DNA of 34,669 nucleotides, from the UHGV virus genome UHGV-0090561; one strand, written 5' to 3'. Positions 344-25,000 of the stretch are shown here, piece by piece; the stretch's first letter is position 1, and the number at the start of each line of letters is the position of its first letter. This stretch comes from a virus. The notes beneath the pieces are model-generated. The model made no database searches. It was not told where the DNA came from and worked only from the letters and a program-made list of their open reading frames with translations. Made by a program: the position numbers and the translations under genes.

Positions 344-672
344 CAGTTCACCACCTGTTCAAACTCTGCGCTGAACTCAACACGCAACATACTGACCCGC
401 GACGACCATTTTGCGCAGGTCACCTTTATCTGCCGGTAGCCATAAGGCGGCGTCCACAGAAAGGCCTTCCAGCCCCCGTGCTCAGCCAGAAACGACTCCA
501 GCGCCGCGGCCTCCCAACGGGGAACAGAAAGCGTCACGCTGTACGTTTTCAGGTCAGTGTTCAGCCCGGCAGGCGCTCGCAGGGAATAGCCATCACCAAA
601 GCGCACCTTTCTTACGGAAGGGGCCGAAGCCACATCCATACCCGGTTTCACTTTCCAGCGGAAGGTTTTCAT
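343..672 (-). CDS. M: Minor tail protein M
   Basis: 109-aa ORF MKTFRWKVKPGMDVAS...SAEFEQVVN is near-identical to recalled lambda gpM; sits between H and L as in lambda. Confidence 0.95.
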   Translation of the reverse strand: MKTFRWKVKPGMDVASAPSVRKVRFGDGYSLRAPAGLNTDLKTYSVTLSVPRWEAAALESFLAEHGGWKAFLWTPPYGYRQIKVTCAKWSSRVSMLRVEFSAEFEQVVN

Positions 673-3230
673 CGTCCACCTCCGGAGAACAGACCACCAT
701 CGCGCATCTGCCCGGTCACAACATCCATTGCCGCCTTACGGGCTACGTCATAAACAGCCTTCAGCGCCTGTGGCCCTATCTGACCGTTCGTGCCGTCGTT
801 GTTAATCACCACATGGTTATTCTGCTCAAACTTCCCGGACGCCTGCGACCGGCTGTCCGCCATGCTGCCCGGTGTACCGACATAACCACCGGTGGCATAG
901 CCGCGCATCAGCCGGTAGAGATTCCCCACGCCAATCCGGCTGGTTGCCTCCTTCGTGAAGACAAATTCACCGCGGTGAACAATCCCCGCAGGCTCATATT
1001 TGCCGCCGGTTCCCGTAAATCCCCCGGTCGCAAAATGGAATTTCGCCGCAGCTGCCTGAATGGCTGTACCGCCTGACGCTGATGCGTCACCACCGACAGC
1101 ACCGCCAATGACACTGCCGACACTCCCGACAATCCCCACCATTGCCTGCTTAAGCAGAATTTCTGTCATCATGGACAGCACGGAACGGGTGAAGCTGCGC
1201 CAGTTCTGCTCACTGCCGGTCAGCATCGCCGCCATATTCTGCGCAATACCATCAAAGGTCTGCGTGGCAGCACTTTTAACCTGCGACATACTGTCCGTGG
1301 CACTCTCTTTCCACTCGCTCCAGCCGGACTTCAGGCCAGCCATCCAGCTCCCGCGAAGCAGGTCTTCAGCTGCCCAGGTCTTTTTCTGCTCTGACATGAC
1401 GTTATTCAGCGCCAGCGGATTATCGCCATACTGCTCCTTCAGACGCTGTTCCGTGGCGTCCCGCGCTGCCTGCCGGTCAGTAAGCCCCCGGTTTTTCGCC
1501 TCAATGGCTGCCCGTTTTGCCCGTTGTTGCTGTGCGAACTTATCCGCCTGCTGCGCCAGCGCGTTCAGGTGCTCCTGATACGTGACCTTATCGCCAAGTA
1601 CAGCCAGCTGGCGTTTGTACTCCAGCGTCTCATCTTTATGCGCCAGCAGGGATTTCTCCTGTGCGGATAGCTGGCGACGTTGTGCCGCCTCCTCCAGTAC
1701 CGCGAACTGATTTTCCGCCTTCCACAAATCCCGGCGCTGCTGGCTGATTTTCTCATTCGCTCCGGCATGCTTCTCCAGCGTCCGGAGTTCTGCCTGAAGC
1801 GTCAGCAGGGCAGCATGAGCACTGTCTTCCTGACGATCGCCCGCAGACACCTTCACGCCGGACTGTTTCGGCTTTTTCAGCGTCGCTTCATAATCCTTTT
1901 TCGCCGCCGCCATCAGCGTGTTGTAATCTGCCTGCAGGATTTTCCCGTCTTTCAGTGCCTTGTTCAGTTCTTCCTGACGGGCGGTATATTTCTCCAGCGG
2001 TGTCTGCAGCCGTTCGTAAGCCTTCTGCGCCTCTTCGGTATATTTCAGCCGTGATGCTTCGGTATCGCTCTGCTGCTGCGCATTTTTGTCCTGTTGACTC
2101 TGCTGTTCAGCCTTCTTTCGGGCGGCTTCAAGCGCAAGACGGGCCTTTTCACGATCATCCCAGTAACGCGCCCGCGCTTCATCGTTAACAAAATAATCAT
2201 CCTTGCGCAGATTCCAGATGTCGTCCGCTTTCTTAAACGCAGCCTCTGCCTTAATCAGCATCTCCTGAGCGGTATCAGGGCGACCAATATCCAGCACCGC
2301 ATCCCACATGGATTTGAATGCCCGCGCTGTCCTGTCTGCCCAGGTCTCCAGCGTACCCATGTTCTCTTTCAGGCGGCGGGTCTGGTCATCAAACCCTTTC
2401 GTCGCGGCCTCGTTCGCCGCCTGCAATGCCCCGGCTTCATCGCCGGAACGCTGCAACTGAGCAACATACGCAATCTGCTCCGCCGTCACGTTATGGAACT
2501 GGCGTGCCATCGCCGTCAGCCCCGACGTCGGGTCTGTGGTCAGCTTCCCGAAGGCTTCAGCGACCTTGTCCACCTCCACGCCGGATGCAGAGGAGAAACG
2601 CGCCACACTCTGGCTGATGGATGCAATCTGAGCCTCACCGCTTACTCCCGCCTTAACCAGTGCGCTGAGTGACTCGCTGGTCTGGTTAAACGTCAGCCCT
2701 GCCGCCTGCCCGGCTCTGGACAGGACCAGCATGCGATCTGCCGTCAGACCCGACTGATTGCCGGAAAGGACCAGCGTTTTGTTGAAATCGGACAGGGTTG
2801 AGTTGCCCTGATACCAGGCATACGCCAGCGCACCGGTCGCCACCGCCAGCGAGGTGGCCCCCACCATCGGCAGGGTGATCGCACCGGCAAGCCCCCTGAA
2901 CATGGGGATCATCCCGCCGAAGGAGTCCTTAACCTGCCCCCCCTGTTGCAGCAGGATCAGCCACGGACTTTGCCCGCCTGCAAGCTGCGTGGCCACGTCG
3001 GTGAACTGTGCAGGAAGCATACGCATGGCGGCTTTATACTGTCCGACGGAAATCCCCGCTTTCTGTGCAGCCAGCGCCTGCCGGTTCATTGACTGTTCAA
3101 CGACTGCCGCTGTTTTTTTCGCATCACTTTCCGTACCGGAAAAATGACGCCTGACTCTGGCCATCTGCTCGTCAAATCTGGCCGCATCCAGACTCAAATC
3201 AACGACCAGATCGCCTACCGGTTCAGCCAT
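669..3230 (-). CDS. H: Tail tape measure protein H
   Basis: 853-aa ORF, the length of lambda gpH, with recognisable N-terminus MAEPVGDLVVDLSLDAARFDEQMARVRRHF and long coiled-coil repeats. Confidence 0.95.
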   Translation of the reverse strand: MAEPVGDLVVDLSLDAARFDEQMARVRRHFSGTESDAKKTAAVVEQSMNRQALAAQKAGISVGQYKAAMRMLPAQFTDVATQLAGGQSPWLILLQQGGQVKDSFGGMIPMFRGLAGAITLPMVGATSLAVATGALAYAWYQGNSTLSDFNKTLVLSGNQSGLTADRMLVLSRAGQAAGLTFNQTSESLSALVKAGVSGEAQIASISQSVARFSSASGVEVDKVAEAFGKLTTDPTSGLTAMARQFHNVTAEQIAYVAQLQRSGDEAGALQAANEAATKGFDDQTRRLKENMGTLETWADRTARAFKSMWDAVLDIGRPDTAQEMLIKAEAAFKKADDIWNLRKDDYFVNDEARARYWDDREKARLALEAARKKAEQQSQQDKNAQQQSDTEASRLKYTEEAQKAYERLQTPLEKYTARQEELNKALKDGKILQADYNTLMAAAKKDYEATLKKPKQSGVKVSAGDRQEDSAHAALLTLQAELRTLEKHAGANEKISQQRRDLWKAENQFAVLEEAAQRRQLSAQEKSLLAHKDETLEYKRQLAVLGDKVTYQEHLNALAQQADKFAQQQRAKRAAIEAKNRGLTDRQAARDATEQRLKEQYGDNPLALNNVMSEQKKTWAAEDLLRGSWMAGLKSGWSEWKESATDSMSQVKSAATQTFDGIAQNMAAMLTGSEQNWRSFTRSVLSMMTEILLKQAMVGIVGSVGSVIGGAVGGDASASGGTAIQAAAAKFHFATGGFTGTGGKYEPAGIVHRGEFVFTKEATSRIGVGNLYRLMRGYATGGYVGTPGSMADSRSQASGKFEQNNHVVINNDGTNGQIGPQALKAVYDVARKAAMDVVTGQMRDGGLFSGGGR

Positions 3231-6611: not shown

Positions 6612-7402
6612 TTACGCCAGTTGTACGGACACGAACTCATCAGGGTCAGCCAGCAGCATCAGCGGTGCTGACTGAATCATGGTGAACTCACGCGCAGGAT
6701 CGCCGGTGGTCACCCAGTTTTTCGGGTAACGGGCAGAGGCGTTAATGCCTTCGCGCTGTGCGTCCGCATCCTGAATGCAGCCATAGGTGCGCAGACCGCG
6801 TGCCTGAGTGTTCCCCAGCACCATCGTGTTGTCCGGCAGGAAGTTCTTTTTGACGCCGTTTTCCACGTACTGCCCGGAATACACGACGATGGCCACATCG
6901 CCATACATCCCCTTATAGGACACCGCTTTACCCAGGTCTTTCACCGCTGTCTCCAGCTCGGAATGAGAGCCGCGACGGGTATCCAGCTTCTCCTTGACGG
7001 CTTTGAAGGAACGGAACAGCGCCCAGCCTTTCGGATCAAACACGATGATATTCACTACACCGCTGGCGTTCAGCGCGTAGGCTTCGATATCGTCGGTCGG
7101 GTCATACGTGGACTTGTCACGCTTGCTCCACTCCGTGCCACCGGACTGTGTGATGTTGTTCGCCGCACTGCGGCCCATATCCACCTCAACCGGATCGAAG
7201 GCTTCACCGGTCATGGTGTATTTGCCCTTAAGCACGGCAGAAACTGCCTGCATCTCTTCGACCTGGGCAATGGCCAGCTCTTCGTCACGCATGTTCTGCA
7301 TGATGATGCGACGGCGACGGTAAGCCGGGTCCGCCAGATTCTGTGGATCTTCATCCGGCAGGCGACGCAGGGTCATCTGCGGATTCACCTCATGCTTGGG
7401 CT
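6612..7402 (-). pseudogene. E: Major capsid protein E, 3' fragment (codons from PKHEVNPQ to end), separated from its 5' part by the insertion
   Basis: Translation ...PKHEVNPQMTLRRLPDEDPQNLADPAYRRRR...VSVQLA matches the C-terminal ~260 aa of lambda gpE; no start codon, and a TAG lies immediately upstream at the junction. Confidence 0.93.
7393..7402. repeat. Left copy of 10-bp direct repeat TGCTTGGGCT (putative att core / target duplication)
   Basis: Identical 10-mer at 18591-18600; both copies lie inside E coding sequence (AAG CCC AAG CA on the coding strand). Confidence 0.8.
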
Positions 7403-8440
7403 ACATGAGTCAATGACGTAAGTATGTGAATGATATAAGAGGAAAAATAGAGCATAATCTCTACCAGAATGACTATGTTGCAATACATGCTGCAATACAC
7501 AGAAATGAATTTACATGCTGTTCGATTATTAAGTTTCATAGCCGAGTTGCAGATCAGCAACTCACCCACCAGCCCAGATAATTTCATTTTCACACTGGAG
7601 GACTCCTTGAAATCAAGGAATCATAATCCTGCCATGTCATCATTCCGGCCTTCTCAGATTTGAGGTGTGCGGAAAAAATAAACGCTATTAAGCAGCTATG
7701 TGGGTACTGCACTTTTTGGGTAGTGCAACTATCCAGCTTCCTCAAATTAAGGATTGTGGAAAAATCAATGAGTCAGGTTTATTCCCCCGTTCTCCCCCAA
7801 TGGGGGTTTTCGAAAGAATCAATGGGTTAGGCCATCGTGCAAATTTGCACTCTGCCAGCCAACGCAATTTTGCGTTATCAGTCCTCAGATGTGAGGGATG
7901 TAGCCAGCTTTTCCCCCAGTGGGGATTATCCAGTTACCGACGGTTTAACCGCCTGTGCCAGCACAACGAAAGAATTTGCGGGTAGCTTTAAACTACTCAC
8001 AACATCCCATCTTACAGGCCGTGCCTTTCTAACTTTTTACAATGCAATAAGTCAGGTAACGCTATGCGTTCCACCGTGTACACCGCGCCAGTAAAACCCC
8101 CGGATTCGTGGTTTTCCTGAATATCAGGAATCTACCGCCGTAACCGCTCCTGCTTCTTCCACTGGTAAGTGTTTTTCGCGCTCTCCCTTCGCTACATGGA
8201 ACGGCGACGATATGGCAACAACTCCAGAACTCTGGTGCGTATGTTGCACATATCCACGCCGTTAAGCTCGATACCGTCACGGCGCATAACCTCAAGCACC
8301 ACACGCGCGTAATTTTCAGCGGTCGTGCTGTCCGACTGCGTTGTCTCCTGTTTGCCTGCTGCCTGATAGATATCACTGGAAACGTGCCGGATAAGTTCCA
8401 GCAGCAGAAAGGCGAGTTGCTACCGCGCAATTGTTGAACA

Positions 8441-8647
8441 AAAAACGAGAAAGGAAACGACACTGTCCAAAAAACACGTTTTCAGCACCTGCTGTTTCCT
8501 TTCTTTTTAGGGGGTATTTATAATAAAAACATTAAGTTACGGCAAAGAAGAACGGAAACGCCTTAAACCGGAAAATTTTCATAAATAGCGAAAACCCGCG
8601 CGCCTTCCGCCCCGTAACGCTCCGGATCACCGGAAAGGACCCGCTCA
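8441..8647. other. cos site of the satellite (cosN/cosB-like), near-identical to the prophage cos
   Basis: About 200 bp aligns almost base-for-base with 24798-25000, including the inverted GAAAGGAAACGAC / CGTTTCCTTTC terminase R-site-like repeats and the segment GCGAAAACCCGCGCGCCTTCCGCCCCGTAACG. Confidence 0.75.
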
Positions 8648-8730
8648 AAAAAAGCGGCCACTGACGTGATTGTTTATGTTCCATGAGCGACAAAACCGCC
8701 CGGAGGCGGTTTCACATAAAACATTTTGCA

Positions 8731-9378
8731 TCAGCGACCAATCACCACAACCTGACCACCATCACCTTCATCTGCCGTGCTGATCTCCTGAGATACCACT
8801 CGCGACCCCACACGCATTTCACCGTACAGAACGGGCAGAACATTGCCCTGGGCAACCATGTTATCCAGTGACGAGAAATACGTGTTCTGCTTACCGTTAT
8901 CCGTTGTCTGTGTGCGGGGAGTTCTGGCTTTCGGTGCCAGCATCTGCGCCACACCACCGAGCACCATACTGGCACCCGCACTATACATTCCTGTAATTGC
9001 TGCCGCTCCTAGCCAACCAGCGGGGTTCCACCACGCCACCGCAATCAGCGCCGCCCCCAGCACGGTCTGAAACACACCGCCACTTTTAGCGCCAGCAAGA
9101 CGCGGTACGATGTGGATCACAGCACCATTCGCCAGCGGCTCATTAAGACGGGCTGATAATTCATTTTCGCCTGCATCCCGCCCGGCAATCCGTACCTGAT
9201 ACCAACCGTCGCTCAGTTTCTGACGAAACGACGGTAGCTGTGTGGACAGAGCTCGGATGGCTTCAGCCCCCGTTTTTACACGAAGGTCGATGCGGTGGCC
9301 GAATCGTTGCAAATCCCCGTAAAGGCAGATTCGTGCCATGCCCGATGACGCCAGAGGGAGTGTGTGCGTCGTTGCCAT
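8731..9378 (-). CDS. Tail assembly protein I-like protein (lambda gpI family)
   Basis: 215-aa ORF MATTHTLPLASSGMARICLYGDLQRFG...QGNVLPVLYGEMRVGSRVVSQEISTADEGDGGQVVVIGR resembles lambda gpI as I recall it (N and C termini conserved, middle divergent); Shine-Dalgarno upstream. Confidence 0.65.
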   Translation of the reverse strand: MATTHTLPLASSGMARICLYGDLQRFGHRIDLRVKTGAEAIRALSTQLPSFRQKLSDGWYQVRIAGRDAGENELSARLNEPLANGAVIHIVPRLAGAKSGGVFQTVLGAALIAVAWWNPAGWLGAAAITGMYSAGASMVLGGVAQMLAPKARTPRTQTTDNGKQNTYFSSLDNMVAQGNVLPVLYGEMRVGSRVVSQEISTADEGDGGQVVVIGR

Positions 9379-9418
9379 TTGTCGGTATACCTCTCTCGTT
9401 TGCTCTGTTGTTCAGAAA

Positions 9419-9802
9419 TTAGCAGATCAACTTATAGCGTCCATTCCGAGCATTGCGGCGTACACGTTCAATCTTGAGGCATAGCGCCGCATCTGGCTTT
9501 TTTGGGACTGGTACACGGCAATATTCAGAAGCGCGAGGAATATTATTTATCCAGTCAATCACTTCGCTTAAATACCAGGCCTTACGCCCTTCCGTAACCT
9601 GCACACGCTCCGGGAACTCTCCACGGGCCTCAAGGTTTAGCAGTGTACGACGACTCAGGGTTGTAAGTTCCATTACCTGATTCATATCAACAAGACGCTC
9701 GCTTAAACGCATTTTGTCAGCGATAGCTTTTAATTCCTCTACAGCTGGATTTGGGTACATAATTTCGGCAATTGGCTTAAGGTCATTGTAATGATTCTGC
9801 AT
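9419..9802 (-). CDS. AlpA-like helix-turn-helix protein with N-terminal extension
   Basis: 127-aa ORF with GGGGGA Shine-Dalgarno; C-terminal half TTLSRRTLLNLEARGEFPERVQVTEGRKAWYLSEVIDWI resembles the AlpA/excisionase-type HTH. Confidence 0.6.
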   Translation of the reverse strand: MQNHYNDLKPIAEIMYPNPAVEELKAIADKMRLSERLVDMNQVMELTTLSRRTLLNLEARGEFPERVQVTEGRKAWYLSEVIDWINNIPRASEYCRVPVPKKPDAALCLKIERVRRNARNGRYKLIC

Positions 9803-9813
9803 TGTATCCCCCT

Positions 9814-10155
9814 TTACACACGAGCCAGCGGCTGAACAGAAATACCTGAGCCAACAAACGCTGCAACCTTTACTGACAGTTCTTTTACAGACTCAGGCCA
9901 GTTCAGAGCATCAACATTTAAGACACCTGTCTTATAGACCTGAGCCTGTGTTTTTTTCGCGGTGTCGATTTGTACAGCGGATACATAAACCGCTTTACCT
10001 ACGCTCGTACCATCCCATACCACCAGTGCACCTGTTGCATCTTCCTGCATCAGTGGCGTAAATGCAGGAATTACCCCTTTATTAGCTGAAAATATCCCCA
10101 GCGTAGTAACCAGTGCTTCAGTGCCAGCCATGAGTTCAGTGTAATGAGTAGCCAT
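9814..10155 (-). CDS. Head decoration protein, lambda gpD family (divergent)
   Basis: 113 aa; aligns by eye with lambda gpD (FTPLMQEDATGALVVWDGTSVG vs [22 protein letters not shown]; AFVGSGISV vs [10 protein letters not shown]); strong Shine-Dalgarno AAGGGGGAG. Confidence 0.7.
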   Translation of the reverse strand: MATHYTELMAGTEALVTTLGIFSANKGVIPAFTPLMQEDATGALVVWDGTSVGKAVYVSAVQIDTAKKTQAQVYKTGVLNVDALNWPESVKELSVKVAAFVGSGISVQPLARV

Positions 10156-10164
10156 TGCTCCCCC

Positions 10165-11205
10165 TTAGCCAATGCGAACGGTAACAAAACGATTGATGCG
10201 AGCCGGTATTGGCTGTGGTGCTGAATGTGTCTGCACATATTCAATAGCCGGATCACCAGGCACAATATAGTTTTTCGGTGCAAGTTCGGCTTTAGTCAGC
10301 CCCATTCGGATTAGCTCCGGGTCCTGAATACCGCCATAGGCGACAATCCCCTGAAGAGCCGTATTGCCAAGCACCATCAAATCAGGATCAAGGAAATGTT
10401 TTTCAGTTCCGTCCTCGTCGGTATAACGCCCGCTGTAAACAACAATCGCAACATCGCCCATATACCCTTTAAAACTCACCGAATCACCAAGGTCTTTAAG
10501 GGCCGTTTCCAGTTCGGAATTAGAACCACGACGGGTATCCAGAGCCTCTTTTATCGCTCTGAATGAACGGTATTTCTTCCATACATTACCGCCCATAATG
10601 ATGATATTAGTGACGCCCTCACTAAATTCTGCGTAGTTCTCAATATCATCATTTGGATCAAAAGTTTCTTTATCCTTACCTGACCACTCAGCACCGCCAG
10701 ACTGAGTGATGATATTTTGTGGTTTAATATTCCAGTCCAGCTCATAACGTTCAATACCATCGCCCTCAATGATATTTTTCCCCGTTGTGATTGCCTGAAC
10801 GGCAAGCCATTCAATACGTGCACGAATAGCTTTAGCTTGATTTACAATCGCCTGTTTAACTTTAATATTACGCGCCCCAAAAGCATTGTATTGCTCAGGT
10901 GATACACCAGCAGGGCGCACAGCTAACTTATTTGGATCAATGCTGCTTTTCGGCTTCATATAGCCTGGACGAATTGTTTTTGATTCGTACCCTTCGTCAC
11001 GTGAAACTTTACTACCCACCATAGGAGAACAAAACGCTGCAATTGGGATATTTGGATCGTCGATTGTATCAAGAATAATATCGCGCGATTCAAACATTAC
11101 CGAGCGAGTAAAAAACAAACGGGTAAACAACGCATTTAGTTGTTTTTGTACATCTACAGCATTAACCACCTGTACAAGCTGGGTAGGCGAATATAAATCA
11201 ACCAT
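10165..11205 (-). CDS. Major capsid protein, lambda gpE family (divergent satellite copy)
   Basis: About 346 aa from the ATG with AAGAGG Shine-Dalgarno; central block NIITQSGGAEWSGKDKETFDPNDDIENYA...AIKEALDTRRGSNSELETALKDLG...GDVAIVVYSG is clearly homologous to lambda gpE but far more diverged than the prophage copy. Confidence 0.85.
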   Translation of the reverse strand: MVDLYSPTQLVQVVNAVDVQKQLNALFTRLFFTRSVMFESRDIILDTIDDPNIPIAAFCSPMVGSKVSRDEGYESKTIRPGYMKPKSSIDPNKLAVRPAGVSPEQYNAFGARNIKVKQAIVNQAKAIRARIEWLAVQAITTGKNIIEGDGIERYELDWNIKPQNIITQSGGAEWSGKDKETFDPNDDIENYAEFSEGVTNIIIMGGNVWKKYRSFRAIKEALDTRRGSNSELETALKDLGDSVSFKGYMGDVAIVVYSGRYTDEDGTEKHFLDPDLMVLGNTALQGIVAYGGIQDPELIRMGLTKAELAPKNYIVPGDPAIEYVQTHSAPQPIPARINRFVTVRIG

Positions 11206-11422
11206 ACGCATCCTCTTTGCATTCATTAAAAATAATTGTGGATATATGCTATCACCGATATTTGTCATGCGAATACATGCAACCGAGTGCAATGTTGTAT
11301 AAAGTTTTGGGATGACAACTTCAGCGCGGATAATTAGTGTTAATATCTTCACTCCCTTTGGTCGGGATTTATGTAGCATGCCGGAAAATTTATTTTTTTC
11401 CGGCCTTTTTTATTGGCAATAT

Positions 11423-11872
11423 TTAAAACGGAATATCATCTCCCCATTGCTCATTATCTCCCACTGGTGGATGGCTTCCTTGCTGATCTGCCTGTTGTTT
11501 TGCTCTGTTCAGTGCGTCAGTAGCCTGCCCCTGTTGGCCTTTTTTGCCGCCCGGTCGCACCGTTCGCGCACTGATTACGCTGTCTGCGATAACCTGCCAG
11601 CCCTGCCGCGTTTCACCGTTCTGTCCAGTCCACTGACTCACCTGCATGTTACCCGCCACGCTCAGGAGTTCGCCTTTGTGATGCTTTGCCAGCGCGTCGG
11701 CTTGTCTGCCAAACGCCAGAACAGATAACCACATCGTCGCCTGACCGTCATCCGACTGGCTGCAGGGCAGTGATACCGCCATACGCGCCAGCGTCATGGG
11801 GGTGCCCTTGCTGGTCTGTTTTGTCTGCGGGGCGTCCACCAGCCGCCCGTAAGCTGCTATTTGCGCCGTCAT
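11423..11872 (-). CDS. ssb: Single-stranded DNA-binding protein
   Basis: 149-aa ORF with OB-fold-like N-terminus, Gly/Gln-rich linker and the characteristic acidic tail ending DDIPF. Confidence 0.85.
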   Translation of the reverse strand: MTAQIAAYGRLVDAPQTKQTSKGTPMTLARMAVSLPCSQSDDGQATMWLSVLAFGRQADALAKHHKGELLSVAGNMQVSQWTGQNGETRQGWQVIADSVISARTVRPGGKKGQQGQATDALNRAKQQADQQGSHPPVGDNEQWGDDIPF

Positions 11873-12126
11873 GCTGCCTGCTCTCCGGACTTAATATTGA
11901 TGGTTGTCACTTCCTCCGCTTCGGCAATCTCCCGTTCGGTCAGCGTGGCAAAGTTTGCAGCCGCCGTTGTCATGAATGCGCTTATCAGTTCGGGATGTGC
12001 TTTCGCGTATCCTTCCCCGGCGTTGCGGTCTATTGCCTTAATCGCCACCCTTAGCCAGTGTTCAGCCATATCAAGGGCGCGGTAATGTGGCTTTATATGT
12101 TTGTTCAGTTTTCCTGATGTGTGCAT
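11869..12126 (-). CDS. Hypothetical protein (satellite, between ori and ssb)
   Basis: 85-aa ORF whose stop overlaps the ssb start (operon-like); no recognisable family. Confidence 0.45.
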   Translation of the reverse strand: MHTSGKLNKHIKPHYRALDMAEHWLRVAIKAIDRNAGEGYAKAHPELISAFMTTAAANFATLTEREIAEAEEVTTINIKSGEQAA

Positions 12127-12169
12127 TTTTATTTTTACCCCCTCGTTTAAAAAGTTTTTTGTGCACCAC

Positions 12170-12404
12170 CACCTTGTCTACCTTGTCTACCTGATTAGTT
12201 ATCAGGCCAGTAATGGCGCGGGTTTCAGGGAGGTAGACAGCCCCAAATAGCTGTCTACCTCATCTCTACCCGTATCCTTACCTGTCTACAAAAATGGGTA
12301 GATAAGGTAGATAACAGGTAGACAGTGAAAAATAGTTATCTACCTGCATTAATACATTGAAATAAAAGTATTTTCTTTCAGTCAGGTAGACAAGGTAGAT
12401 AACC
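12170..12404. repeat. Iteron array (putative satellite replication origin)
   Basis: About 10 copies of GGTAGA(C/T)A / its reverse complement TGTCTACC in both orientations, immediately downstream of the primase-helicase gene. Confidence 0.8.
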
Positions 12405-12415
12405 ATTGCCATTTT

Positions 12416-14167
12416 TTATAAAAACGCATCGCAATCATCAGTAGTCGTTGCGTTGGTCTGCGTGACTCCCTTAACTTTTCGCGTAATATATTCATATCCG
12501 TAAACTTTCGCCGCTGACCTCATAGCCTTTCCGAACTCATTCACGCTCAAACATTTCCCCTTTCCTGTGTATGCCATGAAGGCCATATAGACACGGTAAA
12601 GGCTGTTTCTGGTCGTGTACTTCACGGAGTCACCACCACCGCCCATCATTAGCCCACGAGCTTCCTCCAGAAACTCAAGCGCCGCGCAAAGCTCAACAAC
12701 TGGATCCGTTTGCTGCTTTATTGCCAGAGCTTCATCACCGTCACGCTGTTCCAGTAGTAAAGCCCTTGCCTTTTCAGGGTCAGCAAAGTTAGCCAGCAAG
12801 CGGCGGATAATTACGGGGATTTCTGCCGCTATCTTTTCCGGTAATTCCTTGTCTTTTTCGTCCTCCCTTACAATGTTGTCGAACCGGAAAATCACCCGAC
12901 GGCGTGACACACCTCCGGCCCGTTCGGTAAAGATCATCGGGTCGTTATTGGTTGCCAGTACCACCGCCCTTATTATCGTCGTGAATCGCTTCTCATATTT
13001 CGGATTGATTTCAACGGGATCGCCTCCCGTGATTTTCTTGATGCCCGTGCCTTCCCCCGTATATTTCGGCTGATCGGCAAGGACGATAAGACGACTCCCG
13101 ACAACCTGCGCGCGCCCTCCTGCATCATCGAGTGATGTCATCTCTGCGCTTACGGTGTTCTGTTTGCCTGCAAGCAGGGTGGCAATATGGGTAAATGTAC
13201 TCTTACCGCTTCCCCCGTCTCCGGTGGCCTCAATGAACATCTGCCAGTCGTAGCGGTTCGCCATAATCATGTATAACGCGGCACATATACGCATCATCTT
13301 GCGCGGGTCTTTTCCTGCAGCATGTTCAAGCCATTTATGGAAATTTGGCGCATTATCGCGGATGTTTTCCCCTGCTACTGGTGGCGTGTACTCAATACCA
13401 TTGTGCGTGGTGCTCCAGTGCTCCGGCGAGTGCGGAGAAAATTCCCCCGTTTTCAGATTAAGCACACCATTAGTGAACGGTAGCAAATCACCGGACGGCT
13501 CCCCCATGGGGGCTGCAATAACTTTTAACGCTTCCACGGCGTTATTGATTACACGTTTGCTGAACGTGGCCCTGTGCTCTGAATAGATCGCCACCATTTC
13601 GCGGCTCAGCTCCATTGTGCTGACCGGACACCATACCCCGCCGCGCCATACGTGGACGATTTCACTTTCTGCATGAACACACACACCATCAAAGCGATCG
13701 GCAAGTAGTTGTGCACGTTCACTGTCTGCCATCTGTGAAAGTTGCGCCTTTTGCTTCGTCGGAAGATTAAGCACCAGACTTTCCCCACGCTCGCATTCCT
13801 CTTTGAGTCGCGGCAACTGGTCGGATAAATCCACTGGGCTGGTGTCAGTAATCCCCGCGTATTCGTGTACGGTCTTCACTCCAGCCACAGCCAGTAACGT
13901 AACAATCTGCGTCATGCTGTGCTCTGTGATATGTCCTGCGCGGTAAACACGCACACACTGACGATCTTCATCAATGATCCGGTAATCGGTGATATTTTTC
14001 AGTTGCTCATCAGCCAGCACGACAGGCGGCACATCGTCGGCGGCAATATGTTTACCCGCCCATTCCTGCCACTCTTTCGCATGGCTCCACGCATCACTAC
14101 CTGCAAAGATGATTACCTCTGTCAGTCTGTCGCGTGGCTGTTTTTTTAAGTTCGGTGCCAGTTTCAT
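12416..14167 (-). CDS. Primase-helicase (P4-family primase C-terminal / SF3 helicase-like replication initiator)
   Basis: 583-aa ORF with Walker A GDGGSGKST and downstream NTPase-like motifs typical of P4 alpha-type / PICI Pri-Rep proteins; followed by iterons. Confidence 0.8.
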   Translation of the reverse strand: MKLAPNLKKQPRDRLTEVIIFAGSDAWSHAKEWQEWAGKHIAADDVPPVVLADEQLKNITDYRIIDEDRQCVRVYRAGHITEHSMTQIVTLLAVAGVKTVHEYAGITDTSPVDLSDQLPRLKEECERGESLVLNLPTKQKAQLSQMADSERAQLLADRFDGVCVHAESEIVHVWRGGVWCPVSTMELSREMVAIYSEHRATFSKRVINNAVEALKVIAAPMGEPSGDLLPFTNGVLNLKTGEFSPHSPEHWSTTHNGIEYTPPVAGENIRDNAPNFHKWLEHAAGKDPRKMMRICAALYMIMANRYDWQMFIEATGDGGSGKSTFTHIATLLAGKQNTVSAEMTSLDDAGGRAQVVGSRLIVLADQPKYTGEGTGIKKITGGDPVEINPKYEKRFTTIIRAVVLATNNDPMIFTERAGGVSRRRVIFRFDNIVREDEKDKELPEKIAAEIPVIIRRLLANFADPEKARALLLEQRDGDEALAIKQQTDPVVELCAALEFLEEARGLMMGGGGDSVKYTTRNSLYRVYMAFMAYTGKGKCLSVNEFGKAMRSAAKVYGYEYITRKVKGVTQTNATTTDDCDAFL

Positions 14168-14463
14168 TTTTTGCCCCTGAATGCGTTAATCATGCTTTTC
14201 ATTTTCTGGATGTTTCCCCGCGCTTTTTCCCTGCTGGTGGGCTTACTGCGGGGTGCGGCATATACCAGGGAAAAATCACGCCGGAACTGATAAACAGGCA
14301 TCACACAGTCATAGCTATACCCCTCACGGCGGTAAGTGATGCGCCGTTCTGCCACGCCTTTAATCGTTACCGTGCCGCCGTATTTATCGCGGTAAATATC
14401 GCCGTTCATAAATTCAGGCCGAGCGGGGCCGCTGGCAATAAAGCCAGAATTTTTCATTTCCAT
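14164..14463 (-). CDS. Hypothetical protein (upstream of primase, ATGA overlap)
   Basis: 99-aa ORF translationally coupled to the primase start; no recognised family. Confidence 0.5.
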   Translation of the reverse strand: MEMKNSGFIASGPARPEFMNGDIYRDKYGGTVTIKGVAERRITYRREGYSYDCVMPVYQFRRDFSLVYAAPRSKPTSREKARGNIQKMKSMINAFRGKK

Positions 14464-14480
14464 ATTATTTATTCTTCGAC

Positions 14481-14702
14481 TTAACTCGACTTATTTGATA
14501 GCAGGGCACTATTTATTGCGTCATTGAGTTTTTCTGCTGCTTCATCAATAAGTGACAACAGGCCATAAGCAATATTTGCATCTTCATTGTCATTTATGCA
14601 ATCAAGCCACATATTTAATATTGCTTTTGCTGAATTATTTAAAGTTAATGAACTCTCTGCACATGCTAACAATTTAAAAAAGACTTCCCGTTCTGTATTC
14701 AT
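14481..14702 (-). CDS. Hypothetical small protein
   Basis: 73-aa ORF in a tightly packed co-directional array; AT-rich. Confidence 0.4.
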   Translation of the reverse strand: MNTEREVFFKLLACAESSLTLNNSAKAILNMWLDCINDNEDANIAYGLLSLIDEAAEKLNDAINSALLSNKSS

Positions 14703-14894
14703 TTAATCCCCCACCAGCTTACTTTCTTCCTCAATCAGGAAACTAGCGACACTTCCCGAAAGGCGCGCCAGTAGGCTCGCCAGCGCGGATATATCAGCAT
14801 CTGTAATTTTGTTCGGGTATACCTCAAGAAGGCGGCAAATAATTTCTGTTTGGTGCGCACGTTCAGCGGCTTCGTGTAATGTGATTTCCTGCAT
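14703..14894 (-). CDS. Hypothetical small protein
   Basis: 63-aa ORF abutting its neighbours without gaps. Confidence 0.4.
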   Translation of the reverse strand: MQEITLHEAAERAHQTEIICRLLEVYPNKITDADISALASLLARLSGSVASFLIEEESKLVGD

Positions 14895-15079
14895 TAATGC
14901 ACCTCTTTTAATTCATACACTGCTGAAATAATGACTTGTGATAAGCCATATTCTGATGATTCGCTTCTCACCGCAGCAATAGCCGTCTGAACATTAACAG
15001 CCTTCACGTTCTGAGTGATACCAATTGTGTGGCCTCGTGGGTTAACAGCTCGGGCAAATACACGGAAGGTTTTAAGCAC
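14894..15079 (-). CDS. Hypothetical small protein
   Basis: 61-aa ORF overlapping its neighbours by a few nt. Confidence 0.4.
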   Translation of the reverse strand: MLKTFRVFARAVNPRGHTIGITQNVKAVNVQTAIAAVRSESSEYGLSQVIISAVYELKEVH

Positions 15080-15275
15080 GGCACACCTCCTGACGAATAC
15101 GGGCAGCGAATACCATCACGCAGCCAGTTGGGGATTGCTGGCGGGCTTCCTGTTCGCTGATGGCCTCGATGGTAATCATGCGCGGTTGTGCCGTACTCAA
15201 GGCGATAAAACGCCAGATGTATTTATTCAGGTTGTGCGAGTTCCGCCCTTGCGGGTGTGTGGTATGATTTCTCAT
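15072..15275 (-). CDS. Hypothetical small protein (first gene of the leftward satellite operon)
   Basis: About 67 aa from the internal ATG preceded by a GAGG Shine-Dalgarno; the upstream part of the track ORF is not supported. Confidence 0.4.
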   Translation of the reverse strand: MRNHTTHPQGRNSHNLNKYIWRFIALSTAQPRMITIEAISEQEARQQSPTGCVMVFAARIRQEVCRA

Positions 15276-15474
15276 AGCTACCTCGATACTGTTGCTATCG
15301 TTGGTGGTTAGAAGCCCGTTGGTGTTCCTAGCACCTTCGGGCTTTGCTTTTTTAAGTGCCCCCGTGTTAAGGTGGTCACCTAACAATGAAAAGGCTAATT
15401 CAATAGGTGGTCACTTGTCAACGATCAAACGCGATAAAAGTCCTAAGGGTGATGGGCAATCTCCACAATTCAGA

Positions 15475-15606
15475 ATGCGAATTTCTCCAGAGCTAAAAGA
15501 GCAATTCGACAAAGAAGCGCAGAGCGACGGCATAAGCCTAGCCAACTGGCTTAAAGAATTAGGGCGCAAAGAGCTGCTACGGCGCGGTATTGAACCAAAA
15601 GGATAA
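15475..15606 (+). CDS. Ribbon-helix-helix (Arc/CopG-like) DNA-binding protein, putative
   Basis: 43-aa product MRISPELKEQFDKEAQSDGISLANWLKELGRKELLRRGIEPKG fits the RHH pattern; weak Shine-Dalgarno, so the start is uncertain. Confidence 0.45.
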   Translation: MRISPELKEQFDKEAQSDGISLANWLKELGRKELLRRGIEPKG

Positions 15607-15633
15607 GAATAATTGAAGTCAAGGAGCTAACAC

Positions 15634-15990
15634 ATGAAATACGAATTCTTCGCAACAAGTAGCAGTAGTTTGGATGTATACATAGTCACTGTATCAAACG
15701 ATTCTGGCTCGCTAATCATGACTTGTAATTGTCCAGCAGGAAGTAAAGGTATTCTATGTAGACACCGTAAAGCTTTAATTACCGGAAAAATCCGCGGTAT
15801 ATTCACTCCCCCAAGAAGGAATAATCCTGAAAAATTACAAGAAGCTATAAATTTAATAGCCACATATGGCATAGATAAAACATTAAAGTTGTACACTGAT
15901 GAGTTAGAACGAGCAGAACAGACTTGGATAAGTGTTCGCGATAATTTGAGAGCAATGATAAACGCTCTTGTTGAACCACCTAAATATTGA
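15634..15990 (+). CDS. SWIM zinc-finger protein, small
   Basis: 118-aa ORF with AAGGAG Shine-Dalgarno; motif CNCPAGSKGILCRH matches the SWIM CxCxnCxH signature; followed by an intrinsic terminator. Confidence 0.7.
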   Translation: MKYEFFATSSSSLDVYIVTVSNDSGSLIMTCNCPAGSKGILCRHRKALITGKIRGIFTPPRRNNPEKLQEAINLIATYGIDKTLKLYTDELERAEQTWISVRDNLRAMINALVEPPKY

Positions 15991-16056
15991 ACTGTTCACA
16001 TTGCCTATCAGGCGATAACCTCGTATTCTGATTAAGGCTAACTATATACTCACATT

Positions 16057-16080
16057 GGCGACCAATTCTGGTCGCCTTTA
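16057..16080 (+). terminator. Rho-independent terminator after the SWIM gene
   Basis: GGCGACCA-attc-TGGTCGCC hairpin followed by TTTA; position hand-counted. Confidence 0.6.
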
Positions 16081-16121
16081 TCCACCATTTTTATAATATC
16101 ATAGATTAAAAGTGTTAATCC

Positions 16122-16952
16122 TTACCCCCTGAATGGAATTGATGAGGATTTAATTTCCACAGAACTAAATCCTCTTGAATCCAAGAACATTTTTATACCA
16201 GCCTCAATAAAATCATAATCGTTTGTCGGGCCAATTGTAATGCTTTTAATTGGTAACTTTCTATTATCTTTATTATCAATGATGATATAAGGGATGATCC
16301 CATTATTATTTATTCTGAAGTGCACATCTGGCATTTGCATCCACGGAGTAAATACCAATCTAAATTCATTCTCTTCGATAAAACTAGGATGTTTAAAAAA
16401 TGGGATGTATTTAGATATAAATTGATACGTAGAGACCATTGTTACAAAATGATCATTCATTTCTTTAATATTAATACCATTACAAGAAAAAAACTCCCCC
16501 AACTCCTTACTCATCTTAGTAATATCGTTATTATTTGAATATATAACATCATGTGCAACACAATTTAAATAAATATTTTGAGAAAAGCTCACAAGTTCAT
16601 CCGCATCAAACTCAATGCAAACACCCTGTTTATTTCCGTAACCTCTCCACTGACTTAACTTATCGTTTTCCTTACAAAAAGAGATGCTATAAACATGTTT
16701 ATCAATCCCTTTTTCTTTTTGTAACCTCCCTTTCTCATACATGTCAAGAGACTTGAGCAAAATAGTTTTCTTATCTTTTGGAATGATATTATCATCAACT
16801 ATTTTAATTGTATTTCGAAAGCATTCACATCCATGGTTAGACTCCTCTTTATCATTTAAGAAATATATGTTTGTAGCCCATAAAGAATTAGAGTCTAATA
16901 TACCTTTCAAACCAAAAAGATCTGTATAATGAAATATAGCCACAATGCCCAC
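16122..16952 (-). CDS. DUF2971-like protein (satellite cargo, function unknown)
   Basis: 276-aa ORF, markedly AT-rich versus its neighbours; N-terminal FHYTD...YFLNDKEE resembles the DUF2971 motif as I recall it (not verified by HMM); GTG start 7 nt after the alpA stop. Confidence 0.55.
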   Translation of the reverse strand: MGIVAIFHYTDLFGLKGILDSNSLWATNIYFLNDKEESNHGCECFRNTIKIVDDNIIPKDKKTILLKSLDMYEKGRLQKEKGIDKHVYSISFCKENDKLSQWRGYGNKQGVCIEFDADELVSFSQNIYLNCVAHDVIYSNNNDITKMSKELGEFFSCNGINIKEMNDHFVTMVSTYQFISKYIPFFKHPSFIEENEFRLVFTPWMQMPDVHFRINNNGIIPYIIIDNKDNRKLPIKSITIGPTNDYDFIEAGIKMFLDSRGFSSVEIKSSSIPFRG

Positions 16953-16959
16953 CTAATAG

Positions 16960-17190
16960 TTAAGTTGTTTCCCACTCACCTCGAATCCATGCCTGCACTT
17001 CTGAAAGACGATATGCAACAGCAGTGGAACCAATCTTGATCCGCTTAGGAAATTTTCCTTCCTTCTCCAGCTTCCAGCGTGTGCTGTTCGCAAGAGTGGT
17101 TAGCTCCCGACATTCTTTCTCACGGATCATTCGGTCAATGTTAGGAATGTACTCCAGACCCTTTTTATCAACAATTGCCATTTTTTTCAT
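16960..17190 (-). CDS. alpA: AlpA-family transcriptional regulator / excisionase-like protein
   Basis: 76-aa ORF immediately downstream of int; ...RELTTLANSTRWKLEKEGKFPKRIKIGSTAVAYRLSEVQAWI is the AlpA HTH pattern. Confidence 0.8.
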   Translation of the reverse strand: MKKMAIVDKKGLEYIPNIDRMIREKECRELTTLANSTRWKLEKEGKFPKRIKIGSTAVAYRLSEVQAWIRGEWETT

Positions 17191-17191
17191 G

Positions 17192-18427
17192 CTAACCAGC
17201 CTTTTGTTTGAGGATTGTCACTTTTGAATCAGCAGCTGCGATGCTATTGAGATATGTAGTCCAGAGTTCCAGAGCATCCAGTTTTTTAGCCATAAACTTA
17301 CTCCGGTTGTAAACACCTGCCACGCCAGGTAGCGCATGGCCTAACAGTTGTTCTACTACATAAAATTCAACACCGAGATCACTTAGATGAGTAGATAGCG
17401 TTCTTCTAAGGTCGTGTAGTGACCATTGTTTTTCATGGCCCAAACGTTTACCGATTTTCCCCCCAATCTTGCTTACGCTTTCTCTAATTCGCAGACTTCC
17501 CAGCACATAACCAGTATGTTTTGTCTCTTCGTGAACATCCGTTACCCACTGTCGTAGAATTTCAGGTACTGGTCTGACGATTTCAACACCAGTTTTTGAG
17601 TGATCTTTTGGCACAGTCCAAACCCAACTTTCGAGATCCCATTCGCTCCATTCTGATAATCGGGCTTCACTCATTCGACATCCAAATACTGTACAAAGCA
17701 CAAACATTTTTCGCGTGTATTCAGACATTAGTTTTAAATCAGGCTCGACAAAAATTGCCTTCCAGAGCTGGCCCAGTTCGGCTTCATCCAGAACCCGATC
17801 CCGCTTACCTGCAATCTGCCCCACATCACTCATGCGCAAATCCTTTAAAGCATCACACGTCGCGTACTGGCGTACCCGACAAAAACGAAGAGCTAATTTA
17901 GTGTCAGAAAAAACATACGCCGCCATAACTGGTGCATTACGTTTAATTCGGTCAAAACAGTCCAGCCATTCATATAGGTGAGTGTCATTTACGGGCAAAT
18001 GACCGATATAGGGAAAGATATGCTTTCGAAATCTGCCAAGCGTTACAGCATGAGTTTTACGACGCACCTTACAGTAATTTTCATACCAGTAATTTAGTGC
18101 ATCCTCCACTGTGACCGGCTTTAAGCGTTCTTCAGCCTGAATCTTAATCTGGATACGCGGATCACGTTTGTCAGCCAACCAAGCACGGCACTCGTCGCGC
18201 TTTTCCCTTGCCTGTTTGAGTGACATATCAGGATATTTACCCAACGTTAGCCAGACCGGAGCAGCCCGGCCACCTGCTAACCTGTAGAAGAAAACAAAGC
18301 TCACAGCCCCCTTGGTACTCACACGAATAGAAAGCCCCTTTCCATCAGCAATGGTGATCTGCTTTTCTCTGGGTTTCCCCAGATATCCTTTAAGTGCTTT
18401 GTCGCTCAGTTTGTTCTCGCCAGCCAT
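17192..18427 (-). CDS. int: Tyrosine recombinase (phage integrase family)
   Basis: About 411 aa from the internal ATG (MAGENKLSDK...); C-terminal catalytic region with HDLRRT...LLGH...Y-type motifs; adjacent to the right junction and direct repeat. Confidence 0.88.
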   Translation of the reverse strand: MAGENKLSDKALKGYLGKPREKQITIADGKGLSIRVSTKGAVSFVFFYRLAGGRAAPVWLTLGKYPDMSLKQAREKRDECRAWLADKRDPRIQIKIQAEERLKPVTVEDALNYWYENYCKVRRKTHAVTLGRFRKHIFPYIGHLPVNDTHLYEWLDCFDRIKRNAPVMAAYVFSDTKLALRFCRVRQYATCDALKDLRMSDVGQIAGKRDRVLDEAELGQLWKAIFVEPDLKLMSEYTRKMFVLCTVFGCRMSEARLSEWSEWDLESWVWTVPKDHSKTGVEIVRPVPEILRQWVTDVHEETKHTGYVLGSLRIRESVSKIGGKIGKRLGHEKQWSLHDLRRTLSTHLSDLGVEFYVVEQLLGHALPGVAGVYNRSKFMAKKLDALELWTTYLNSIAAADSKVTILKQKAG

Positions 18428-18589
18428 TTTTAGCCCCAAAAAGCAATACAAGCTGCAATACAGAGATGATTGCAACACACAGATAACGAGGAAAATCCAG
18501 TGAAAGCGCCAGATAAACTTATTCTTTATTATCAAAAGATTAAGTGTAAAAACCAGCAACTACACGAAAGCCTCAGAAAGCCATGCTAA

Positions 18590-18835
18590 GTGCTTGGGCT
18601 TGACATATCCCGGTGTAAATTCAGAGGTGGAGCCGCCACGGGAGCGGATAACCTCACCGGAAACAATCGGCGAAACGTACAGCGCCATGTTTACCAGTCC
18701 CGGAATTTGTGAGAGATAGACTTTCTCCGTGGTGAAGGGATAGCTCTCACGGAAAAAGAGACGCAGAAACAGCGGATCAAACTTAAATTTCTTCTCATTT
18801 GCCGCCAGCAGCTGGGCGGTTGTGTACATCGACAT
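18590..18835 (-). pseudogene. E: Major capsid protein E, 5' fragment (first ~81 codons), reading into the insertion
   Basis: MSMYTTAQLLAANEKKFKFDPLFLRLFFRESYPFTTEKVYLSQIPGLVNMALYVSPIVSGEVIRSRGGSTSEFTPGYVKPKH matches the lambda gpE N-terminus, then diverges (LAWLSEAFV, stop) at the junction. Confidence 0.93.
18591..18600. repeat. Right copy of 10-bp direct repeat TGCTTGGGCT
   Basis: Identical to 7393-7402; lies at the codons KPKH of E. Confidence 0.8.
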
Positions 18836-18890
18836 AAAAAAATCCCGTAAAAAAAGCCGCACAGGCGGCCTTTAGTGATGAAGGGTAAGG

Positions 18891-19223
18891 TTAAACGATG
18901 CTGATTGCCGTTCCGGCAAACGCGGTCCGTTTTTTCGTCTCGTCGCTGGCAGCCTCCGGCCAGAGCACATCCTCATAACGGAACGTGCCGGACTTGTAGA
19001 ACGTCAGCGTGGTGCTGGTCTGGTCAGCATCAACCGCAAGAATGCCAATGGCAGCACCGTCGGTGGTGCCATCCCACGCAACCAGCTTACGGGTGGAGGT
19101 ATCCAGCATCAGCGGGGTCATTGCAGGCGCTTTCGCACTCAATCCGCCGGGCGCGGTTGCCGTATGTGCCGGGTCACTGTTGCCCAGCGGCTGGTAATGG
19201 GTAAAGGTTTCTTTGCTCGTCAT
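18891..19223 (-). CDS. D: Head decoration protein D
   Basis: From the ATG after a TAAGGGA Shine-Dalgarno: [41 protein letters not shown]... matches lambda gpD. Confidence 0.95.
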
Positions 19224-19232
19224 AAACATCCC

Positions 19233-24233: not shown

Positions 24234-24259
<26 letters not shown>

Positions 24260-24779
24260 TCAGCAACCCCGGTATCAGTTCATCCAGCGCGGCTGCTTTG
24301 TTCATGGCTTTGATGATATCCCGTTTCAGGAAATCAACATGTCGGTTTTCCAGTTCCGGAAAACGCCGCTGCACCGACAGGGGGATCCCGTCGAGAATAC
24401 TGGCAATTTCACCTGCGATCCGCGACAGCACGAAAGTACAGAATGCGGTTTCCACCACTTCAGCGGAGTCTCTGGCATTCTTCAGCTCCTGTGCGTCGGC
24501 CTGCGCACGCGTAAGTCGATGGCGTTCGTACTCAATAGTCCCTGGCTGCAGATCTGTCTCGCTGGCCTGCCGCAGTTCTTCAACCTCCCGGCGCAGCTTT
24601 TCGTTCTCAATTTCAGCATCCCTTTCGGCATACCATTTTATGACGGTGGCAGAGTCATAAAGCACCTCATTACCCTTCCCACCGCCTCGCAGAACGGGCA
24701 TTCCCTGCTCCTGCCAGTTCTGAATGGTACGGATACTCGCACCGAAAATGTCAGCCAGCTGCTTTTTGTTGACTTCCAT
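24234..24779 (-). CDS. Nu1: Terminase small subunit Nu1
   Basis: 181-aa ORF MEVNKKQLADIFGASIRTIQNWQEQGMPVLRGGGKGNEVLYDSA... matches lambda gpNu1; adjacent to cos. Confidence 0.96.
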
Positions 24780-24797
24780 TGTTCATTCCACGGACAA

Positions 24798-25000
24798 AAA
24801 CAGAGAAAGGAAACGACAGAGGCCAAAAAGCCCGTTTTCAGCACCTGTCGTTTCCTTTCTTTTCAGAGGGTGTTTTAAATAAAAACATTAAGTTACGGCG
24901 AAGAAGAACGGAAACGCCTTAAACCGGAAAATTTTCATAAATAGCGAAAACCCGCGCGCCTTCCGCCCCGTAACGTTCTGGATCGCCGGAAAGGACCCGA
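24798..25000. other. Prophage cos region (cosB R-site-like repeats and cosN-like segment)
   Basis: Reverse complement resembles the lambda left-end region (AAACGACAGGTG.../CGTTTCCTTTCT... R sites, IHF-like AT-rich stretch), but the cosN-equivalent differs from lambda GGGCGGCGACCT; duplicated at 8441-8647. Confidence 0.75.

Follow-up and report, generated by a model that had tools for sequence, protein, structure and literature searches.

Phage satellites are partly defined by the absence of tail genes, and they are thought to take the tails of their helper phages unmodified. The window described here is the whole 34,669-nucleotide stretch of the virus genome UHGV-0090561, and it contains a satellite that carries one tail gene. 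This is an intact copy of gene I, which in phage lambda encodes the tail-tip protein gpI, and it lies at 8731-9378 on the minus strand, between the last late gene of the satellite and its cos site. The satellite is a member of the published family '11capE / E_Phage_cap_E_80' of helper-embedded phage-inducible chromosomal islands (HE-PICIs) (PMC10111431). Capture of helper late genes into the 'late zone' has been documented for this family, and the tail Pfams M and L, which occur in 0 of 476 model satellites, have been used as markers that satellites lack (PMC10111431). The working definition of capsid-forming PICIs (cf-PICIs) also demands the absence of tail genes. M and L are absent from the window satellite, but the 'no tail genes' signature is still broken since I is present. 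It is probable that this is a working but redundant tail-tip plug gene that was gained by late-gene capture.

The satellite resembles the described 11capE HE-PICIs in its integration site in gene E with an identity block, in its co-orientation with the late operon of the helper, and in its gene order (integrase, AlpA, accessory genes, primase, SSB, capsid and decoration, helix-turn-helix (HTH) gene, cos). It differs in its captured cargo, which here is a tail-tip gene placed in the otherwise invariant junction of the HTH gene with cosQ. The features around this junction are:

9419..9802, minus strand: AlpA-family HTH gene, the last backbone gene of the late zone
9276..9419, minus strand: remnant of the 3' end of K, ~144 nt, with 41 nt upstream of the I start and the rest overlapping I
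8731..9378, minus strand: gene I, intact, encoding a gpI-family tail-tip protein of 215 aa from an ATG start
8749..8974, minus strand: putative recombination patch inside I, ~8% divergent from the copy in Escherichia coli RM14723
8676..8730, minus strand: remnant of the I-J spacer, ~55 nt, with the GC-rich hairpin AAACCGCC-TCCG-GGCGGTTT
8645..8675, minus strand: orphan linker, ~31 nt, from the cassette to cosQ
8438..8644, minus strand: satellite cos of the helper type, with cosQ at 8630-8642 and the cosN overhang GGGCGGAAGGCG at 8601-8612

In lambda, gpI is a trimeric 'insertion' or plug protein inside the tail-tip cone that retains the tape-measure protein and the DNA. Its two hydrophobic helices are proposed to enter the outer membrane. 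Residues 135-223 of lambda gpI bind gpJ and support the gpH coiled coil in the virion (PMC10721106, PMC11101478). The product of the window gene has the same three-part build, with an N-terminal ubiquitin-like Lambda_tail_I domain, two hydrophobic helices, and a C-terminal plug with beta-strands. Lambda_tail_I (PF06805) was matched in Pfam over residues 14-97 with 84.8 bits against a cut-off of 23.8 (E 5.7e-24). In PHROG the protein is phrog_32, 'tail assembly protein' (E 2.9e-84, profile positions 2-202 of 203). The solved lambda gpI chains 8IYK, 8IYL, 8K35, and 8XCG are collinear with the full-length product (E 2.1e-108), the alignment to chain I of 8IYK spans residues 1-215, and residues 129-214 match the resolved lambda fragment 9E7M (E 8e-47). 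In an alignment with lambda gpI, residues 1-68 and 127-215 are near-identical, with a divergent segment between them (69-126) that is 8 residues shorter. The C-terminal 87 residues, which correspond to the virion-resolved, gpJ-bound region, are ~95% identical to lambda. The segment GGVFQTVLGAALIAVAWWNPAGWLGAAAITGMYSAGASMVLGGVAQMLAP aligns with H1/H2, the central Gly/Ala-rich hydrophobic helices of lambda. A first-pass annotation of the window had called the gene a gpI homologue with lambda-like ends and a divergent middle, and the profile, structure, and alignment results all agree with that description.

It had also been suggested that the satellite carries a variant of gpI, and this label is too strong for a protein without any satellite-specific feature. 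In a collection of 5.8 billion proteins, the clusters nearest to it consist of 215-aa proteins with 93-95% identity and have hundreds to thousands of members. The relatives that were looked up are normal I genes of E. coli prophages in the canonical M-L-K-I-J order, and the middle segment (…AVAWWNPAGWLGAAA…GMY.AGASM…) is common to the window protein and the prophage alleles. The divergent middle is thus that of another, common prophage allele and not an invention of the satellite. The nearest prophage I allele has 92% DNA identity, so no recent donor is among the sampled sequences. The exact window protein was found in only one contig of a large assembly index, which is the window's own (ERZ857897 NODE_890).

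What sets the gene apart is its position. Unlike lambda I, it lies between an AlpA-like gene and cos without complete K or J flanks; it has ~144 nt of the K 3' end on one side, which it overlaps as lambda I does, and no J on the other. All of the nearest I alleles are in L-K-I-J prophage contexts. A scan of one representative genome per species gave 43 loci, and these were canonical K-I-J arrangements, uninformative fragments, or lambda vector contamination. Among the top 80 I loci in IMG/VR, 77 were canonical or uninformative. One of the three exceptions is a satellite of the RM14723 lineage described below, and the other two have shorter K matches with J present. A different arrangement was found in the cryptic prophage Qin (L010, E. 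coli CFSAN061772), where a cos-like sequence precedes an I gene truncated at its 5' end and a truncated J. This was rejected as a counterpart, being unrelated and reversed in order. The Qin arrangement is a deletion that joined cos to I in the order opposite to that of the satellite cassette.

The cassette is a 781-bp insertion (8645-9425) made up of the K 3' end, I, the I-J spacer, and the linker, and it is located precisely between the HTH gene and cosQ. Homology to phages and prophages across K and I runs from 9419 to 8676-8681 and no further, and it stops ~10 nt short of where J would start. The remnant of K has neither a JAB nor an NlpC/P60 domain, and its boundary at 9276 is taken from the equivalent 144-nt K pseudogene annotated by PGAP in two relatives (L001 and L003) and not measured in the window. 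At the junction with the HTH gene only the last residue of that gene is altered (G to C), with a new TAA stop at 9419-9421. A full-length match to the linker was found only in I-type satellites among 5426 complete E. coli genomes. In relatives without I, such as that of E. coli strain 10, only 27 nt separate the HTH stop from the same cosQ-cosN-cosB. These relatives already have the HTH stop, the 27 nt, and cosQ, and therefore the event was a simple 781-bp insertion. A replacement of a cos-terS module by the cassette was also considered and rejected, as terS-less relatives have the HTH stop, the 27 nt, and a cos of the helper type.

Because the bounded homology (8676-9419) takes in the I-J spacer as well as a dead 3' end of K, the cassette originated by capture from a phage. 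It is probable that an HE-PICI of the 11capE family captured I from a lambdoid phage by illegitimate recombination, and that the K remnant, I, the I-J spacer, and the linker landed together between the last late gene and cosQ.

The contig is a metagenome assembly of SPAdes style with 7.4x coverage, and both I and cos are repeated sequences, so an assembler could in principle have joined a prophage I to the satellite at a repeat. The probability of such an artefact is negligible. Both junctions, that of the HTH gene with the K remnant and that of I with the linker and cosQ, are identical base for base in three closed E. coli chromosomes (RM14723, 2015C-4136CT1, and Z1323HEC0355) and in an IMG/VR contig, which is the same element as that of the closed genomes with 99.99% identity. 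The window is 97-99% identical in DNA to Eco8567.11 (RM14723) and Eco8487.11 (2015C-4136CT1), both of which are listed in the PMC10111431 supplement.

The cassette is very rare. The junction of the HTH gene with cosQ is uninterrupted in 374 of the 378 E. coli genomes that match it, and the cassette with the K remnant and I is present in three of the four exceptions. The gene had been called unexpected cargo, and the intact junction in nearly all of these genomes justifies the phrase. The three closed carriers count as one lineage because they share the same composite, with an IS3-linked deletion of helper tail genes. This deletion spans V to J in the RM14723 lineage, and its satellite is therefore stranded in a tail-less helper. 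The window is the second known lineage with the cassette in this satellite family, and its accessory genes differ at both ends.

The two lineages also show what has happened to the gene after its capture. The window and the RM14723-lineage satellites are 99.3% identical over 6.7 kb, a background divergence of 0.7%. The patch at 8749-8974, in the 3' third of I, holds 18 of the 20 differences within the ORF and 18 of the 22 across 8726-9443. Here the window resembles ordinary prophage alleles more than it does the satellite of the RM14723 lineage. The patch is a signature of gene conversion from another I allele, for which a co-resident lambdoid phage is the simplest source, and it shows that the captured I still exchanges sequence with phages. 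Of the differences between the two E. coli satellite copies, 13 are synonymous and 7 are in non-synonymous codons. Since they are concentrated in an imported recombination patch, the excess of synonymous changes is not evidence for selection in the satellite. The first-pass annotation had offered a recombination relic from the helper as one origin of the gene. Capture from a lambdoid phage is favored by the K 3' remnant, the spacer, and the bounded homology. A fresh duplication of the I gene of the resident helper is not, because the same junctions are present in a different satellite and host lineage.

A second I gene was found in satellites of Klebsiella. Gene profiles in the part of the PMC10111431 supplement that was available, covering 7 of 645 genotypes, include Kpn6334.16 and Kpn6433.16, which are capsid-forming Klebsiella HE-PICIs in the terminase gene A. 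The elements were recovered through the published attR sequence and the assembly index, and their I-family genes are:

7436-8080 in L147: I-family gene of a Klebsiella satellite
8718-9350 in L148: I-family gene of a Klebsiella satellite

In these satellites a 196-aa I-family protein is encoded directly after terL by the last co-oriented gene of the late zone, and it is followed by an inverted gene for an Mrr-like nuclease and then by attR. The protein matches phrog_32 (E 1.9e-70), has a Pfam match below the cut-off, and is 33% identical to the window gpI. Its nearest relatives are encoded by Klebsiella prophage I genes in the order M-L-K-PDZ-I-J. Identity to the nearest prophage allele that was tested is 84% for the protein and 71% for the DNA, where homology does not extend beyond the ORF. 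The satellite form has a 90% cluster to itself, with 50 sequences. A search of IMG/VR for the I gene of the Klebsiella helper returned only the satellite copy. The ORF called by the gene caller has a 14-residue N-terminal extension that the prophage alleles lack.

Like the window satellite, the Klebsiella HE-PICI has a full-length I as its last co-oriented late gene and no other tail gene. It differs in having a full capsid and terminase module, another integration site, and another donor phage group; its I follows terL and not the HTH gene, and a K remnant and cos are not adjacent. As the E. coli and Klebsiella satellites differ in type, site, and donor group, I was captured at least twice. 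Both of these unrelated satellites thus ended up with I as their single tail gene, located where the late zone ends on its 3' side.

This recurrence is an argument for an adaptive cargo, by which a satellite-made gpI would manipulate or enhance assembly of the helper tail tip. Such a gene might provide more tail-tip initiators for the satellite capsids, or a compatible plug where the I of the helper is poorly matched, or it might tune the exit of DNA into recipients, which for a helper-embedded satellite are necessarily lysogens. Both types, 11capE in E. coli and the capsid-forming one in Klebsiella, carry I alone at the late-zone 3' end, both cassettes are trimmed to that gene, and satellites in general otherwise lack tail signatures. 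The Klebsiella gene is intact despite its low DNA identity to the nearest allele tested and has its own cluster. In E. coli, the slot between the HTH gene and cosQ is otherwise invariant, and it is therefore not a general hotspot for cargo. Set against this, the cassette is very rare within the E. coli family, and the gpJ-binding part of the window gpI has no satellite-specific residues. The closed genomes with the cassette are uninformative, as their helper tail genes are lost, and the ratio of non-synonymous to synonymous substitution rates (dN/dS) among the Klebsiella copies is based on only 5-6 differences and says nothing on selection in the satellite. The common pool of tails also makes a satellite-specific benefit non-obvious. 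An adaptive role is thus possible but doubtful. The stronger proposal, that I is selectively and repeatedly acquired by helper-embedded satellites to help build the helper tail tip, is unlikely.

Several features are consistent with expression of the captured gene. I starts 40 nt after the HTH gene and is co-oriented with the late operons of both the satellite and the helper, its native ribosome-binding site is carried in the 41 nt of the K 3' end, and no terminator is predicted between the cassette and the upstream genes. For these reasons late expression is likely. I would be transcribed late with the capsid, decoration, and HTH genes of the satellite, and read-through from the helper would also transcribe it while the satellite is integrated. 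A silent relic, neither expressed nor used and intact only through its recency, agrees less well with these features and with an upstream HTH ORF that was preserved by the junction. The Klebsiella counterpart is intact despite its deep divergence as well. The low divergence between the two lineages does leave room for a relic, since an unconstrained ORF of 648 nt could easily stay open at 0.7%. In addition, most of the I differences were imported by recombination and are silent on selection in the satellite, and the neighboring phrog_1561 remnant has decayed. Overall, a silent relic is improbable.

A working but redundant plug is the simplest reading, and its predicted role can be outlined from the known place of gpI in the lambda tail. 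The satellite gpI would be equivalent to that of the helper and would join the helper gpJ, gpL, and gpH in tail tips. It would act as an extra and largely redundant supply, dependent on the helper K and on all other tail proteins, and trimeric plugs made from it could be present in the tail tips of both helper and satellite particles. It probably has no special function of its own.

PICIs are already known to act on tails, as their Tai systems act on the central tail fibre J and in this way prevent tail assembly (PMC11364771). By analogy, the satellite gpI could enter the tail tips of the helper or of lambdoid competitors as a poison subunit and make these phages less infective. Like Tai and Tab (PMC11364771, PMC10884400), it is a satellite gene that concerns the tail tip of a helper or competitor and is near accessory hotspots; I borders the 3' accessory region, where the RM14723 lineage has an AbiJ-like gene and Klebsiella the Mrr-like nuclease. 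By their descriptions, Tai and Tab differ in being inhibitors of J and not phage structural homologues, whereas the window I is an ordinary-looking structural gene that shows no specialization for inhibition. Its gpJ-binding C-terminus is essentially the lambda consensus and resembles a normal functional allele, and it could not tell helper from competitor. No convincing PADLOC defense match was found for gpI, the sole match being LeoBC over 52 residues of the hydrophobic segment (E 4.7e-5). The satellite itself also needs working tails. Interference or defense is consequently a very improbable role for this protein.

There are points that weigh against a redundant plug gained by capture. The scan for promoters and terminators found sites that were no more numerous than in shuffled sequence. 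His28 is the sole substitution at a near-invariant position, which is normally Arg as in lambda, and the RM14723 copy retains Arg. Only two lineages carry the cassette (3 of 378 genomes and the window); spread by selection is therefore not visible, and this rarity cuts both ways. The Klebsiella I at an equivalent position hints at preferential retention, unlike a purely neutral capture. Lastly, the direct repeat of I in the composite should be destabilizing, and its persistence is therefore weak evidence of some benefit.

The satellite family, its cos, and the general phenomenon of late-gene capture have already been described (PMC10111431), and two satellites with I are listed in the tables of that study. 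Tail assembly genes are not mentioned in its main text, and a literature search on PICI and 'tail assembly protein I' found no paper. To our knowledge, the exact anatomy of the cassette, the invariance of the junction that it interrupts, and its recurrence in Klebsiella are new. The presence of a tail-tip plug gene in two unrelated satellite lineages suggests that satellites may on occasion act on tail-tip assembly or DNA delivery. If I has a role, it would be a new point of satellite-helper interaction. If it was acquired selectively, it would be the first tail protein encoded by a satellite and an exception to the rule that PICIs have no tail genes, and its possible effects include more tail-tip initiators or a DNA-exit plug and membrane-insertion helices fitted to satellite transfer into lysogenic recipients. 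If it has no role, it is a clean example of late-gene capture with exact breakpoints and continued recombination with helper alleles.

The rest of the window is the minus-strand late operon of a lambda-like prophage into which the satellite is inserted. From high to low coordinates, the features are:

24794..24999, minus strand: helper prophage cos, upstream of Nu1, with a non-lambda cosN overhang at 24957-24968
24234-24779 to 18560-18862, minus strand: 5' part of the helper late genes, Nu1 (24234-24779), A, B, C, D (18891-19229), and the first ~90 codons of E (18560-18862)
18591..18600, minus strand: attL identity block AGCCCAAGCA, joining the 5' part of E to the integrase end of the satellite
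First part of the satellite backbone, minus strand: integrase, AlpA-like, DUF2971, small ORFs, DUF4222, D5/DUF5906 primase, SSB
Late zone of the satellite backbone, minus strand: its own E-like capsid gene, its own D-like decoration gene, and the second AlpA-family HTH gene
8080..8365, minus strand: decayed phrog_1561 remnant (a 93-aa gene in terS-type relatives), without the first ~25 codons and with an in-frame stop
7393..7402, minus strand: attR identity block AGCCCAAGCA, joining the 3' end of the satellite to the 3' part of E
6612-7388 and below, minus strand: 3' part of the helper late genes, the rest of E (6612-7388), FI, FII, Z, U, V, G, T
669-3230 and below, minus strand: end of the helper late genes, H (669-3230), M (343-672), and the start of L

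The helper E gene is split (18560-18862 and 6612-7388) by ~11.2 kb of co-oriented foreign DNA. When the two fragments are joined across AGCCCAAGCA, the reading frame is restored, and the flanks of attL and attR agree with the attL/attR alignments in the PMC10111431 supplements. The split gene and the flanking blocks bear out the earlier placement of I inside a satellite. The gene had also been described as separated from any tail gene cluster, and this holds as well, since the window starts inside L and the K-I-J region of the prophage lies beyond the window start. Pfam matches in the satellite are Phage_integrase, Phage_AlpA, DUF2971, DUF4222, D5_N/DUF5906, SSB, Phage_cap_E, and HDPD. They show the four-zone layout of an integrase with AlpA, an accessory/Bro zone, a primase with SSB, and a late zone with its own capsid gene. 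The capsid-decoration module is covered over at least 80% in 395 of the 5426 complete E. coli genomes.

The satellite cos is of the lambda type and lies 86 nt downstream of the I stop codon, in agreement with the earlier remark that the gene is next to the cos site, and after cosN it contains R3, the IHF-site region, R2, and R1. Over 206 nt (satellite 8438-8643 and helper 24794-24999) the two cos sites align without gaps at 91% identity, and the cosQ, R3, and R1 boxes are recognizable in both. For comparison, the cos of the prototype satellite matched over 258 bp at 90% (PMC10111431). The helper and the satellite share the overhang GGGCGGAAGGCG, whereas that of lambda is GGGCGGCGACCT. In the RM14723 lineage the satellite overhang is GGGCGGAAGGCG and that of the resident defective prophage is of the lambda type; the satellite of E. 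coli strain 10 has GGGCGTCAGGCG. No Nu1/terS gene was found after the satellite cos in the window, and for this reason the satellite is expected to be packaged by the helper terminase, in line with PMC10111431 and PMC6739421. Some relatives instead have cos followed by terS and a phrog_1561 gene. The phrog_1561 remnant indicates that the 3' part of the satellite is recombinant, with a decayed piece of a terS-type element.

The helper gpH is 97% identical to lambda gpH. Near its C-terminus (669-740), a patch around residues 819-840 differs from lambda at several positions, and it coincides with the lambda helix that rests on the gpI trimer. The satellite capsid ORF (10165-11379) has 404 aa when read from an upstream ATG, compared with 346 aa for the relatives in RefSeq, and its match to the capsid E profile begins at residue 70.

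The accessory zone (15634-16952) encodes a DUF2971 protein (16122-16952, minus strand) and, on the opposite strand, a 118-aa ORF (15634-15990). These have weak matches to the PADLOC candidate systems PDC-S31 and PDC-S62. In the RM14723 lineage this pair is replaced by a HicB-like gene and a different ORF, and an AbiJ-like gene is present after cos (L001 10483-11244; also in L003 and L004) with a PADLOC match to AbiJ (E 2e-22).

An Rfam search over 7000-19000 of the window gave no matches. The 3' end of the satellite (7403-8060) has ~650 nt without a convincing ORF, is unannotated in RefSeq genomes, and is 96% conserved in other members of the family; arm sites for the integrase, or an RNA not yet described, may lie there. 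Replication origins of PICIs are usually placed just downstream of the primase gene. In the window satellite this position (12231-12403) contains a cluster of repeated palindromic motifs (AGGTAGACAG…CTGTCTACCT, GGTAGATAAGGTAGATAAC).

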